A stretch of DNA of 64,000 nt from Cyanobacteria bacterium P01_F01_bin.150 (lineage in GTDB: Bacteria > Cyanobacteriota > Cyanobacteriia > CAKZMO01), in NCBI GenBank assembly GCA_039189765.1, contig JBCCYL010000013.1:41893-105892 (forward strand), written 5' to 3'. Under the pieces are notes generated by a model that was not told the origin of the DNA, ran no database searches, and worked only from the letters and a program-made list of their open reading frames with translations. Position numbers and translations under genes: made by a program. Of the stretch, positions 51,189 through 64,000 are shown in pieces. Numbering within the stretch: the first letter of the stretch is position 1; every line of letters begins with the position of its first letter.

Positions 51189-52532
51189 CTAGACAATTTT
51201 TCCAGCTTTGCTAAATTCCCGTTTAATAGCAGCAAGTACCGTCTTTTTATGTAATTCTTGATGACCGTGCTTCAAGACCTGTAAACAGCAATACTGAACA
51301 ATATTCATGATATCAGCACCACTTAACTCATAACTAATGGACAGTTCTGTCAGATCCACTGATGCTCCTAATTTAAGTTGGCTCGGAAAAGCCTTTTTCC
51401 ATATTTGCAACCGTTCTTTAGAATTTGGCATTGGAAAGTTGATGATGGATTGAAAACGGCGAATGAATGCATCATCAATATTACTCTTTAGATTAGACGA
51501 CAAGATAACAAGGCCATCATAATGTTCAACTCGCTGAAGTAAATAACTCACTTCTTGATTGGCATACTTATCATGGGCATCTCGTACATTCGTCCGTTTG
51601 CCAAATAAGGCATCAGCTTCATCAAAAAATAAAATCCATCCCTTGCTCTCCGCGCGAGCAAATAAATTTGCTAGGTTCTTTTCTGTTTCACCAATAAATT
51701 TAGACACCACCATAGACAAGTCGACTTTGTAAACGTCCCTGCCCGTATATTTTCCTAATAGGCTAGCCGTTAATGTTTTGCCCGTGCCTGGAGGACCATA
51801 GAAAAGAACTCGATAGCCTAACTTCAGCTTTTTTTTCATTTCCCAGTCATATAAAAGGGTAGCCCCATGGTCAATCCACACCTTTAAATCATGGATTTTG
51901 TCTAGGGTTTGACTATTAAGGACCAAATCATCCCAATCCATTTCAGTAGTAATCCGTTGAGCAGGAAAATTAACGCTAAATTGGGGACTAGAAAAACTAC
52001 CTTGGCTAAACCAATCAACATAGTCCTGGGTCATAATCAGCTTGCCACTCATGCGAGGTTCACCATTGGGAACGGGATCCAGATAAAGGATCTGTTGCTG
52101 TGAAAAAAGATGTTCTTGACTAAACAGGGTGTAATAAGGAAAACGATCGGTAAATTCAAGTCCTCCTAATAAAAATAACGCTGTTTCCCCTGTAGGCAAA
52201 AATCCTCGGTGAATGGTTCCACGCCACCCTCCAAGTTGAGGATAGTCTCCCGCTTGAGGAAGTTGAGCAGTAATCCACTGGTCGAAAAAATCAGGCTGGA
52301 GATGAGGCGCTAGCGCAGTCAACAATACAAGCTGTTCTGACGAGTTCAATTGATGAGCTTGAATAAATTGACTCAAGGGGCTATCTATTGCTAGCCAATC
52401 GCTTGACAGGCCAGAAAAATTTGAGACTGAGGAAGGTTGAGATGGATTAAAACAGGATTGAATACGCCATTGAATCGCTCGGGCGAGATAATCCAGGGCT
52501 TGTTGCAAAGTGGAGGCGTTAAACGATCGCAT
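51189..52532 (-). CDS. AAA+ ATPase, Afp15/Pvc15-type (eCIS-associated)
   Basis: GPPGTGKT, VVSKFIGETEKNL, LFFDEADALFGKRT and YANQEVSYLLQR motifs; same strand as the DUF4157 and tape-measure genes. Confidence 0.88.
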   Translation of the reverse strand: MRSFNASTLQQALDYLARAIQWRIQSCFNPSQPSSVSNFSGLSSDWLAIDSPLSQFIQAHQLNSSEQLVLLTALAPHLQPDFFDQWITAQLPQAGDYPQLGGWRGTIHRGFLPTGETALFLLGGLEFTDRFPYYTLFSQEHLFSQQQILYLDPVPNGEPRMSGKLIMTQDYVDWFSQGSFSSPQFSVNFPAQRITTEMDWDDLVLNSQTLDKIHDLKVWIDHGATLLYDWEMKKKLKLGYRVLFYGPPGTGKTLTASLLGKYTGRDVYKVDLSMVVSKFIGETEKNLANLFARAESKGWILFFDEADALFGKRTNVRDAHDKYANQEVSYLLQRVEHYDGLVILSSNLKSNIDDAFIRRFQSIINFPMPNSKERLQIWKKAFPSQLKLGASVDLTELSISYELSGADIMNIVQYCCLQVLKHGHQELHKKTVLAAIKREFSKAGKIV

Positions 52533-52786
52533 TCAGCAATATAGGAATAAGAACTATATTCAATACGGCTTATATTTTAAGCCTTACAATAGAACCAATC
52601 TTTTGTAAAAAATATAGTTTTGCAAATAAATGCAAATAAAATACTGGACTCAAACTATGAAGGAAACGTAACGCCTAAAATCTTAGTATAAATGAGAGGA
52701 AGGTTGCTCCCATAGAATCTAAATCTAGTACATTTTATCCTTAATTTTCTCTGTAACTCACCTCTAGTTAGGAGATAGTTCTTCCT

Positions 52787-53260
52787 ATGTCAGAGACTAT
52801 TGACCAAAAATATCAAGGTACCCTTATCCCGACTTTTTTCAATAAGAATGAGACCCAAGGCATTCAGACTTCCCTTCAGGCTAAAGTTATTCAGCTATGG
52901 GAGATGTTTTTTGAAAATGACACAGCCCTTACACCCCAGAAAGTAGGCAGAAAAACCTGGATTCTCATCAAGTTTTTGTTACTCGTTTTCTTCTTAATTA
53001 CATCGCTAGTTGCGTTAACCTTTTGGCTGTGGGGGATTGGTTTTCGTAGTGGGTGGGAGCTGCGTCATTGGCTTGCCGTAGAAAAACCAGAGCGCAGCCA
53101 GGTTATTGCCCTTTTTCTTAAAGTACTAGCATGGCCCTTTATATATGCGATTAATTGGGCAGATAATTTTGTAAAAAAATACTTTGGCTGGGAGTTCAAG
53201 GTAGAGTTCCCAGCGGTCACCTCTTCTGAACAACAGACCGACACTACTGGGGGCGAATAG
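52787..53260 (+). CDS. Hypothetical membrane protein
   Basis: 157 aa with AGGAG RBS and hydrophobic segments (LIKFLLLVFFLITSLVALTFWLWGIGF; IALFLKVLAWPFIYAI). Confidence 0.75.
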   Translation: MSETIDQKYQGTLIPTFFNKNETQGIQTSLQAKVIQLWEMFFENDTALTPQKVGRKTWILIKFLLLVFFLITSLVALTFWLWGIGFRSGWELRHWLAVEKPERSQVIALFLKVLAWPFIYAINWADNFVKKYFGWEFKVEFPAVTSSEQQTDTTGGE

Positions 53261-53280
53261 ATCCATACATAGCAAATTAG

Positions 53281-53329
53281 AAGACTTTTACTAGAGGGTA
53301 ATTGATCAGCTCCCTAGTGAAAGTTTTTT
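53281..53329 (+). terminator. Probable intrinsic terminator between convergent genes
   Basis: Stem ACTTTTACTAG...CTAGTGAAAGT (one G-U pair) followed by a T run. Confidence 0.6.
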
Positions 53330-53358
53330 GGCAACATAGCCATGTCTCGTTAAGCGAC

Positions 53359-62978: not shown

Positions 62979-63092
62979 GGTTCTGCGTCCATTCCACCGT
63001 CAATAAACATCCTACAGCAGCTTCTACTAGGCTGCTCCCAGAGCAATTCGCTCAGCAAAATCCTTTGACTTAATTGCTGTAACCTAAGGAGG

Positions 63093-63803
63093 TCAATCCG
63101 CTGGAGCATCTCTGCCAATGAAAATTGACAACTGAGCGGTATGGTCAGCGATTTCTTTCTCCACCGCCGCGATCGCCTTAGTTACTTCAGCGTTAGCCGC
63201 TTTTAACTCTTCTTCGGCTGTCGTTACCTCAGCGTTAGCCGCCTTTAACTCTTCTTCGGCTGTCGCTTTCGCCCCCACATCTTGGCTATCCTTCAACGCT
63301 TGCACTGCCTCCTCCTTTTGTTTTTTGACATTCTTGGCCTCAACCAATGTGTTATTTACCTCTATCACTTTGTCCTCTGCCTGCTTTTTGTTATCTGGTT
63401 CAGTCGGCTGGTAGGTATTGACAAATGAAATTTTGGAAATTTCGCCATTGTTATCGTCATTGTTACTCTCTCTAAGGGAGGCAATTACCTCTGGCCCCAA
63501 TAAAAAGAGTGGTTCATGTAGGGGCTTATCCAGAATAGGCGTAGCCTCCACCGTCAGCTTTATTTCGCCTGTACCTTCGCCTTTAGGATAAATATTGGAT
63601 TGAATCAGCAACAATTTGATCGGCCCCTCTTCAGGCTTCGGCATGCGGTCGATTCCAGCAGCAGCAGTCCCAGCACTATTGGGAGGTATCGATAAATCGA
63701 ACGTCTCATATTTATCCACTTCAACCGTTCGAGTCGATTGAACGGTAGGCCCAGAGGGCACCTGAATACTCAATTGAACCTTAAGAGTCGTCATAGTCAT
63801 CAT
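63093..63803 (-). CDS. Hypothetical eCIS-locus protein with coiled-coil segment
   Basis: 236 aa with AAGGAG RBS. Beta-rich core (VPSGP..YETFDLSIP..LLIQSNIY..FVN..IFIGRDA) interrupted by a charged helix containing a 42-bp duplication (63181-63264). Confidence 0.75.
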   Translation of the reverse strand: MMTMTTLKVQLSIQVPSGPTVQSTRTVEVDKYETFDLSIPPNSAGTAAAGIDRMPKPEEGPIKLLLIQSNIYPKGEGTGEIKLTVEATPILDKPLHEPLFLLGPEVIASLRESNNDDNNGEISKISFVNTYQPTEPDNKKQAEDKVIEVNNTLVEAKNVKKQKEEAVQALKDSQDVGAKATAEEELKAANAEVTTAEEELKAANAEVTKAIAAVEKEIADHTAQLSIFIGRDAPAD

Positions 63804-63855
63804 TCTCCTTGAAACAATAAAATAACTAGGTATTCAAACTTTATTCAACGCTTTG

Positions 63856-63999
63856 TTATGTCCACTCCACCGTCAATAATCCATCCATCCACGGCAGTTT
63901 CACCATGCTGACGCCCCAGGGCAATCGGGTCAGCAACACATCGATCGCCATCTGTTCTACCCGCAACGTCCAGTTTTGCTCCCCCGTATGAGTCAACTT
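63856..63999 (-). CDS. C-terminus of contractile injection system tape-measure protein (CIS_TMP family), partial
   Basis: My translation: KLTHTGEQNWTLRVEQMAIDVLLTRLPWGVSMVKLPWMDGLLTVEWT*, matching the LxVExxxxDxLLxxLPW...KLPWM...VEW terminus typical of this family. Confidence 0.8.
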   Translation of the reverse strand, partial: KLTHTGEQNWTLRVEQMAIDVLLTRLPWGVSMVKLPWMDGLLTVEWT

Positions 64000-64000
64000 C

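Follow-up and report, generated by a model that had tools for sequence, protein, structure and literature searches.

The cargo region of a putative thylakoid-anchored contractile injection system in a marine cyanobacterium: candidate Phe-Phe loading leaders and a putative toxin domain of an unnamed family

The 64,000-nucleotide stretch of Cyanobacteria bacterium P01_F01_bin.150 analysed here (the window; GenBank assembly GCA_039189765.1, contig JBCCYL010000013.1, positions 41,893 to 105,892) ends in the cargo and loader genes of a complete contractile injection system (CIS), very probably an orthologue of the thylakoid-anchored CIS (tCIS) of Anabaena. Three proteins encoded in this region share hydrophilic N-termini with two or three Phe-Phe (FF) pairs, a leader that in related loci splits by type of CIS ATPase and that we propose as a candidate loading signal, and the largest of the three ends in a putative toxin domain. 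The system itself is of a known kind; the FF leader pattern and the unnamed C-terminal domain family look new. In what follows, G000 is the source genome and C-numbers are its contigs; G-, L- and P-numbers denote other genomes, the loci read and proteins, respectively. An initial annotation, made from the window sequence alone, had described the region as the end of an uncharacterised extracellular CIS (eCIS), with a CIS_TMP-type C-terminus at the window edge and a DUF4157 protein and an AAA+ ATPase on the same strand; Pfam confirms all three on the minus strand (E 3.8e-18, 9.9e-32 and 7.8e-27).

The window reaches the end of contig C13. The final 141 nucleotides (nt) of C13 recur without change at the start of C1, as its first 141 nt, and, when all other contigs of G000 were compared, occur on none of them. 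A Logan contig of 21,379 nt spans window positions 48676-64000 with zero mismatches and runs 6,054 nt beyond the window end; it probably comes from the source sample and is therefore not independent of the assembly, and the 141-nt overlap together with this contig forms the basis for joining C13 to C1. The open 47-amino-acid (aa) frame at the edge (63856-63999 of the feature at 63856-64000, minus strand) aligns to positions 419-463 of CIS_TMP (PF19268) and is the C-terminus of the tape-measure protein (TMP, Cis14). The remainder of the TMP lies on C1, where positions 1-24721 encode, in one direction, Pvc16_N, a second cap protein, the sheath, two tubes, a small Cis6-like open reading frame (ORF), CIS_tube, VgrG, PAAR, gp25, baseplate J, proteins of 164, 1576 and 1664 aa, and the rest of the TMP. 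The tail genes that the initial annotation had proposed to look for beyond position 64000 are thus all there, and a complete set (cap, sheath, tubes, spike, PAAR, baseplate and tape measure) is linked to a DUF4157 cargo gene.

Comparison with proteins of known structure identifies this operon more closely. In a PDB sequence search, the 1664-aa protein matches All3314, the crown protein Cis19 (E 3.5e-273), the 1576-aa protein matches All3315/Cis12 (E 0), and the sheath is nearest to All3325. The Cis12 extension is present, as residues 640-1300 match only All3315, covering 603-1109 (E 1.8e-58), and the AlgoCIS baseplate is much more distant from this locus than All3315. The 164-aa protein aligns with the 154-aa All3316/Cis13 (E 5.3e-43) through its membrane helix, and its C-terminus is hydrophobic, with a hydropathy peak of 1.86 at residues 135-160. 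Crown Cis19, the Cis12 extension (residues 610-1100) and a short Cis13 with a membrane helix are the tCIS features used by Weiss et al. (2022, PMC8894136; this and the other publications cited are drawn on in part). The tail operon matches that of the Anabaena tCIS, and we therefore regard the locus, with high confidence, as a tCIS; the earlier view of it as the cargo and loader end of an injection system stands, and its description as a generic, uncharacterised eCIS does not. By analogy with Anabaena, the particles are predicted to be anchored in the thylakoid membrane.

Among 400 other genomes sampled, Cis13 was matched in eight, with the full short length only in G371. In six other genomes (L125, L127-L131), the Cis13 N-terminal domain opens a protein of 619-1044 aa in place of the short membrane-tailed one, which suggests fibre-bearing and perhaps non-anchored variants. 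The window DNA occurs in a marine metagenome, which makes the host marine, and G000 has two strong matches to PF03574, which we take to be the HetR family, presumably typical of filamentous cyanobacteria. Several other CIS loci are present in G000: tube genes number 14 and are spread over 7 contigs, DUF4157 is matched 11 times, and two longer ATPases match in the AAA core only. These further loci lie on C5, C17 (with a second full CIS_TMP), C25, C94, C115, C223 and C1 at about 30500-36300, and directly upstream of the tCIS on C1 are a second baseplate/gp25/Tail_P2_I cluster and Cache-HAMP sensor genes.

The principal cargo gene (57639-62978, minus strand) encodes a 1779-aa protein with an FF leader, an eCIS_core/DUF4157 domain at residues 273-349, a long linker, hydrophobic segments at 1112-1190 and a C-terminus marked by conserved His and Ser-Gly-His-Tyr (SGHY) residues. 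P0007 and P0008 are full-length homologues, and the cargoes of L020, L126 and L137 share residues 1-365 with it (36-51% identity) and differ in their C-termini. Purified Anabaena particles were found to contain both DUF4157 proteins of that organism (PMC8894136), and it is very likely that the 1779-aa protein is lumen cargo.

The leader of this protein (62769-62978, minus strand) comprises 70 hydrophilic residues with three FF pairs, and comparable N-termini are found on the 259-aa and 90-aa proteins described below. We built a filter on the three window leaders, which asks for at least two FF pairs in 70 residues and at most 15% L/I/V/M/W/Y/C, and applied it to an independent set, the 80 loci of related ATPases that also served as our comparison set for gene linkage. 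It passed 45 of 100 DUF4157 ORFs and 5 of 926 other ORFs; the latter five are leader-like as well, and inspection revealed a divergent tail resembling DUF4157 in two. In a count that allowed alternative starts and dropped 5 of 106 frames as open at the 5' end, 90 of the 101 DUF4157 proteins beside the short ATPase type had at least two FF pairs in 110 residues, set against a mean of 1.95 positives and a maximum of 7 in 300 composition-preserving shuffles of the same proteins. FF runs hold 430 of the 542 Phe residues in this set, Pro precedes 122 of 215 FF pairs, and a spacing of 9 is commonest. The motif holds across loci from Cyanobacteria, Bacteroidota and Proteobacteria. As background, two FF pairs in 110 residues occur in 131 of the 7,411 ORFs of G000.

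The pattern splits by ATPase type, even inside single genomes. In four tCIS genomes, all seven DUF4157 proteins at the tCIS or beside its ATPase are FF-positive, and none of five encoded elsewhere in the same genomes (G071, G371) is. None of five in G020 is positive, nor is any of 18 in five genomes without an intact short ATPase, where the N-terminus of the ATPase, used as query, gave no match longer than an 80-aa fragment; in these within-genome counts one duplicate locus was left out and a few starts are uncertain. In G000 itself, none of eight other DUF4157 ORFs has any FF pair (nine of ten ORFs were recovered, one truncated). Over all DUF4157 proteins of other loci, 0 of 36 were leader-positive, one of them adjoining a distant short ATPase. 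By eye, many FF-less DUF4157 leaders carry R-P-F or R-G-F instead (L147, L149, L151-L153, L156, L166, L168, L171, L175, L176, L178, L179), which is possibly a counterpart signal for the long ATPase type.

The candidate reader of such a signal is encoded at 51189-52532 (minus strand), a 447-aa CIS AAA+ ATPase with intact motifs (Walker A at 246, Walker B Glu305, pore-loop and arginine-finger stretches). Its Walker B position, 305 as compared with 292 in Alg15 of the Algoriphagus machipongonensis system AlgoCIS, suggests that it belongs to the short type. Relatives at 51-71% identity sit in CIS loci, Bacteroidota ATPases at 51-63% among them, and within 10 kb of the ATPase relatives a DUF4157 gene is found in 64 of the 80 loci and a TMP gene in 30; in several named loci the ATPase stands instead at the head of the operon. 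Loading in AlgoCIS needs Alg15 and the disordered N-terminal domain of the cargo and does not need DUF4157 (bioRxiv 10.64898/2026.05.27.728243), and that the 447-aa protein is the cargo loader seems to us well supported.

Divergent from the ATPase gene, at 52787-53260 (plus strand), lies a gene for a 157-aa protein with two hydrophobic segments (residues 53-86 and 104-124). It was found in six of the 80 ATPase loci, all among the nine cyanobacterial ones and always in this divergent arrangement, and the pair also occurs in G371, so that we regard it as a conserved tCIS accessory, which could be a holin or a thylakoid-pore factor. In L016-L019, L021, L022 and L140 the two-helix gene is likewise head-to-head with the ATPase gene, the pair standing at the start or end of the tCIS operon.

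The two further leader-bearing genes, 12 bp apart, lie between the ATPase and the large cargo, and the initial annotation, which had picked out the large cargo correctly, missed both as payload. The first (54347-54619, minus strand) encodes 90 aa with acidic repeats. In G016 a homologue of 106 aa (51%) likewise precedes the 259-aa gene; on this conservation and synteny we reject the reading of the ORF as debris, and it is probably a minimal cargo or a loading modulator. In the 259-aa protein (53555-54334, minus strand), an alignment of 12 sequences shows three FF positions kept, variable spacers and an invariant HEYRH. Its HExxH motif is what makes it zinc-metallopeptidase-like, and it is probably a second cargo; a suspected likeness to DUF922 found no support in family searches. 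Its closest named relative is in a Leptolyngbya metagenome-assembled genome, and in the tCIS locus of G071, where the order is TMP, DUF4157 cargo and a 189-aa gene, a homologue comes next, with the ATPase immediately behind it. G016 has, after the cargo gene, a 134-aa gene, then one that by eye probably encodes pentapeptide repeats, and then the homologues of the 90-aa and 259-aa genes. That both proteins are loaded appears somewhat probable. Searches of Pfam, NCBIfam, PHROG and PDB sequences returned nothing useful for the 157-, 259-, 90-, 228-, 167-, 166- and 236-aa proteins, the 259-aa protein having no Pfam or PDB match.

At the other end of the large cargo, the C-terminal domain (about residues 1640-1779; 57639-58061, minus strand) belongs to a family without a Pfam, NCBIfam or PHROG model. 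The C-terminal 150 residues have 114 representative relatives at E 0.001, and of 33 long relatives scanned, 8 carried DUF4157, 2 RHS, 2 haemagglutinin/TPS, 2 PT-HINT and 3 other domains, with 16 lacking a Pfam match; the domain is therefore found on unrelated delivery proteins (RHS, CdiA/TPS or PT-HINT) in 6 of the 33. The earlier view of the DUF4157 protein as built like a polymorphic toxin is borne out by this distribution and by its exchangeable C-terminus. The domain profile was matched in 19 of 401 genomes (G000 included). At 11 of 23 non-self loci the domain ends the ORF and a same-strand gene for 146-213 aa follows within about 110 bp; at most of the others it is embedded in a larger protein. 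The conserved residues of the domain are Gly1710, His1713, Gly1727, Gly1735, Ser1744, Gly1745, His1746, Tyr1747 and Pro1749 (Ser-Gly-His-Tyr-x-Pro), of which His1713 and Ser1744 exceed 90% conservation. Atlas searches returned no named family, the best matches being unnamed clusters, and metagenome scans with the domain and with the 166-aa protein encoded behind it, a viral-contig scan and a plasmid search gave no matches. We consider it likely that the domain is a toxin.

Several loci show the domain in other settings. Stand-alone His/SGHY domains of 127-197 aa with a 146-213-aa gene occur in cyanobacterial genomes (L098, L101, L104, L106-L109, L112, L114); no delivery gene lies within the 3-kb loci read, and they resemble orphan toxin-immunity pairs. 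In L099, L102, L103, L110, L111, L113 and L115-L117 the domain is internal to proteins of 470-630 aa and not C-terminal; these loci belong to one family of the same phylum, outside the class. L132 (10193-18457) encodes a related 2213-aa DUF4157 protein with no FF leader, whose His/SGHY domain is internal and whose C-terminus differs; behind it come a 118-aa gene and then a homologue of the 228-aa gene of our locus. A similar motif presumably also occurs in plant IQM proteins.

Structure prediction offers a lead to the chemistry of the domain. AlphaFold models were confident (pLDDT 94.5 and 90.4). Because a helical N-terminal piece dominated the first fold search, the core was refolded alone; human PHPT1 (Janus/Ocnus fold; PDB 2NMM), already the top non-helical match of the first model (Z 5.4-5.9), was the best match of the core among 48,161 chains (Z 6.9, rmsd 3.1 Å over 82 residues; next match 4.5), in a range (Z < 8) that the tool describes as common by chance. 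PHPT1 binds phosphate between its helix-1 loop and its strand-5/helix-2 loop through His53 and Ser94 (PMC4817053), and in our model helix 1 begins at the conserved His and the loop between strand and helix 2 contains the conserved Ser, both PHPT1-like in their secondary-structure positions. PHPT1 differs in sequence (12% identity, no profile match), has no counterpart of the extra invariant His among its described residues and is a eukaryotic signalling enzyme, in contrast to the bacterial toxin context here. Given that chance often yields Z values below 8 and that sequence searches gave no match, we treat the likeness as a lead and not as membership; PHPT1-like chemistry, a His/Ser phosphoryl-group hydrolase, is a tentative and rather doubtful assignment from the model. 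The parts of Nachmias et al. drawn on do not mention PHPT1 or phosphohistidine, and our literature search, which covered result listings outside subscription papers and figure alignments, found no description of a PHPT1-like or SGHY toxin domain.

Behind the cargo gene lie two small genes that the initial annotation had called an immunity pair. The first (57121-57621, minus strand) begins 17 bp after the cargo stop and encodes 166 aa, and the second (56607-57110, minus strand) begins 10 bp further on and encodes 167 aa. This putative assignment draws on their position, their size and their GC content of 0.33, as against 0.47 for the genome. Neither protein has hydrophobic segments, and neither matches an immunity family in Pfam or the other family searches. 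The 166-aa protein, with three homologues at 60-81% identity, is a reasonable immunity candidate, somewhat better than even in our estimate, and the 167-aa gene, an orphan or a paralogue, perhaps also protects the producer. Paralogy of the two was not significant (BLASTP E 0.13; hhalign E 0.031, collinear, the best of 45 pairs). A 210-aa TTG frame at 56607-57239 was set aside, as it overlaps the 166-aa gene and the 167-aa form (ATG at 57110) is on record. Some eCIS toxin-immunity pairs have been validated, and for most toxins none is identifiable in an adjacent position (Geller et al. 2021, PMC8213781).

Two more proteins flank this unit. The 236-aa protein (63093-63803, minus strand), between the TMP and the cargo, has a conserved N-terminal part, a variable charged insertion and no FF leader; family searches gave weak coiled-coil matches alone, and homologues follow the TMP in L020 (51%) and L131 (33%) and lie beside cargo genes in L139. 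The 228-aa (or 202-aa) protein (55820-56506, minus strand) is a possible accessory of the large cargo: its homologue (23%, E 3e-9) lies two genes behind the related DUF4157 protein of L132. It had no match in 300 other genomes, and its Atlas matches were all under 0.8 and named no family. The 236-aa gene was found in one of the 80 related ATPase loci, and the 259-, 90-, 228-, 166- and 167-aa genes in none.

In the ORF map, the minus-strand order from the right edge is the open 47-aa frame followed by genes for 236, 1779, 166, 167, 228, 90, 259 and 447 aa, with the plus-strand 264-aa and 157-aa genes interposed. Gaps from the TMP to the 228-aa gene are 52, 114, 17, 10 and 100 bp. The cargo region is three minus-strand units with two plus-strand genes between them, and the single payload, immunity and release cassette of the initial annotation must be given up. 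A scan for promoters and terminators came out at about the level of chance (26 against 18.8 ± 4.0, and 8 against 13.6). The 264-aa gene (54834-55628, plus strand), convergent with the TMP-to-228-aa unit and divergent from the 90-aa/259-aa pair, encodes an endolysin-type muramidase with PG_binding_1 (E 2.5e-20), a weak GH19 match under the Pfam cut-off (E 1.8e-4), a PHROG endolysin match (E 7.7e-35) and no FF leader. On the linkage seen in the 80 loci, G071 and G016, we count the ATPase, the 157-aa gene and the genes with an FF leader among the parts of the system and regard the muramidase as a probable passenger.

Taken together, we favour the explanation that a tCIS is combined with ATPase-loaded FF-leader cargo, a toxin domain and immunity, and as a whole we hold it to be fairly likely; thylakoid anchoring, ATPase-driven loading, toxicity, immunity and chemistry are steps that we infer. 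The C1 operon would build the particle, and the Cis13 C-terminal helix and the Cis12 extension would hold it in the thylakoid membrane. By extension from Alg15 of AlgoCIS, the 447-aa ATPase would recognise a disordered N-terminal leader, marked in this ATPase clade by FF pairs mostly about 9 residues apart, unfold the protein and feed it into the lumen of the tube; its predicted cargo would comprise the 1779-aa DUF4157 protein, the HExxH protein of 259 aa and the 90-aa protein. Stress lysis would expose the particles, which would then inject the cargo, and the large cargo would probably cross or insert in a membrane by its hydrophobic segments and deliver its C-terminal enzyme domain. The 166-aa gene, and perhaps the 167-aa gene, would protect the producer. 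A more specific joint proposal, in which an FF code is read by the short (~450-aa) ATPase and the domain is the first bacterial PHPT1-like toxin, stripping phosphohistidine or P-N bonds, with a new immunity family, is improbable in our judgement.

The closest known system is the tCIS of Anabaena (Nostoc) sp. PCC 7120 (PMC8894136; PDB 7B5H, 7B5I). Both have Cis19, extended Cis12, short Cis13, sheath, tubes, Cis6/7/8/9/10/11 and cap genes in one operon, and in both a DUF4157 cargo follows the tape measure. The leader of the 1340-aa Nostoc DUF4157 protein also carries FF pairs, three in number (Danov et al., supplement, PMC11297309). They differ in that an ATPase is in the locus here, and in that the single DUF4157 cargo here has a different C-terminal domain, the Nostoc protein ending in a deaminase; two non-DUF4157 leader genes, candidate immunity genes, the muramidase, three accessory genes and a marine host are found only here. 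With AlgoCIS (Cgo1, Cgo2, Alg15) the locus shares cargo built of an N-terminal leader, DUF4157 and a variable C-terminus, and an AAA+ ATPase after the cargo genes, the likeness to Alg15 being drawn from its published description (bioRxiv 10.64898/2026.05.27.728243); AlgoCIS, however, is released and not membrane-anchored, and its cargo leaders have one FF pair as opposed to two or three. The polymorphic toxins (RHS, CdiA, HINT) and DUF4157 eCIS toxins (PMC8213781, PMC11297309) have in common with the large cargo an N-terminal trafficking domain, a long linker, an exchangeable C-terminal domain and a small low-GC gene behind; our C-terminal family has no Pfam, NCBIfam or PHROG model, and two adjacent immunity candidates are present here where the eCIS toxins of Geller et al. 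mostly have none.

A different account of the whole would make this a free, released eCIS in which everything from the TMP to the ATPase is one payload, immunity and release cassette and the muramidase lyses the producer. The muramidase is indeed built like an endolysin and lacks a hydrophobic signal segment, a holin-like role is conceivable for the two-helix membrane protein of 157 aa, and Anabaena ghost cells are always without peptidoglycan (PMC8894136), so that some hydrolase must act; peptidoglycan-binding-domain genes also occur in four of the 80 related loci and beside Bacteroidota DUF4157 genes. The Cis13 membrane helix and the Cis12 extension, however, point to thylakoid anchoring. 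The muramidase gene is on the opposite strand, the matches in the four loci cover the peptidoglycan-binding domain only, with the catalytic domain in none of the 80, and G071 has the same gene order without it; homologues were found in two of five tCIS genomes (G071 and G016), on contigs other than those of the CIS, and not in G371, G314 or G132. We find no support for the release role given to this gene in the initial annotation: that it is part of the system or serves release is unlikely, a passenger or unrelated insertion being probable, and the released-eCIS account as a whole is a little less likely still. Some findings weigh against the tCIS explanation that we favour. The whole analysis is computational. 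Weiss et al., in the parts drawn on, list no Afp15 homologue for Anabaena and report no notable phenotype against predators. In Calothrix, Aulosira and related loci (L016, L019, L021, L022, L140), on the other hand, an ATPase lies directly upstream of cis16A, so that one may lie outside the cluster as defined in PCC 7120. No kinship was detected, moreover, between the 166-aa and 167-aa proteins and the products of the genes that follow the domain in other homologues.

For the leader, the competing view is that FF pairs are an inherited feature of a leader family, serving for instance tube-wall packing or forming part of a conserved stretch before DUF4157, that loading needs disorder and polarity only, and that the 90-aa and 259-aa genes are recombination products for which loading is not required; jointly these come somewhat short of an even chance. 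Leader and ATPase are co-inherited, so that their correlation does not show recognition and co-inheritance alone can explain it, and whether FF pairs are required for loading or read by the ATPase we put at even. Danov et al. (PMC11297309) report no conserved signal sequence and note that PVC/Afp signal activity tolerates mutations, and the proven AlgoCIS cargoes Cgo1 and Cgo2 have one FF pair each in their supplement. Our own counts hold exceptions: 11 of the 101 DUF4157 proteins lack two FF pairs, of which about four look truncated or gapped, and G020 has an FF-less DUF4157 protein at a CIS locus with a 46-47% ATPase. Only 3 of 7,411 ORFs in G000, all in the window cargo region, pass the filter, a circular count, since the filter was devised after these leaders had been seen. 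In favour of a signal, the 259-aa family, in which DUF4157 is absent, retains its FF positions as the spacers diverge, and the motif holds across three phyla and splits cleanly within single genomes. As for the C-terminal domain, a different chemistry (for example a metal-independent RNase or a His-dependent nucleotide-processing enzyme) or a binding role, with the PHPT1 likeness reflecting a common alpha/beta arrangement, is slightly favoured over even. The Z of 6.9 is in the chance range quoted by the tool, gelsolin, ADF and RNase PH domains also appear, gelsolin domains rank above PHPT1 by E-value in Foldseek (PHPT1 E 0.074), the second invariant His (1746) has no counterpart among the PHPT1 residues described in PMC4817053, and the domain can be internal or repeated in longer proteins. 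None of 74 aligned members matches the Janus/Ocnus-type family in Pfam at E 0.1, and the domain profile does not find PHPT1 in PDB at E 10. Against this stand a lead of 2.4 Z over the next match, coverage of 82 of 98 residues, a TM-score (0.56, probability 0.96) above all others listed by Foldseek and a conserved His and Ser at the same secondary-structure positions as in PHPT1.

Elsewhere in the window, the plus strand encodes a multi-module polyketide synthase of 4766 aa (31559-45859), in which KS, KR, ACP and methyltransferase motifs were recognised by eye. About 570 bp separate its end from a gene (46428-48680, minus strand) for a NACHT-NCH2 protein with an Ala/Ser/Ile-rich repeat insert; diverged copies of the protein occur in the same and sister metagenomes. 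WD40, 194-aa and NACHT genes were considered as system parts and rejected, the first occurring in one of the 80 ATPase loci and the other two in none.

Published views on the CIS loading signal vary, two studies finding none conserved and one proposing a system-specific signal. The PROCIS preprint (bioRxiv 10.64898/2026.05.27.728243) describes the loading sequence as not conserved across systems and proposes ATPase specificity, and its main text, as distinct from its alignment figure and supplements, does not contain the word phenylalanine; our literature search, with the scope given above, found no CIS loading signal of the Phe-Phe type. Weiss et al., in the parts drawn on, found no target of the Anabaena tCIS. 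With the FF leader as a candidate, the question of what a CIS loader recognises becomes testable by a few point changes in AlgoCIS or Anabaena. The leader finds cargo that DUF4157 searches miss and, if it is a true signal, would allow cargo to be predicted genome-wide. The C-terminal domain, for its part, represents a family as yet without a name, with over 100 divergent members and an evident candidate active site, and its sharing with RHS and CdiA proteins, together with the candidate immunity genes, suggests that bacteria may be at least one target.

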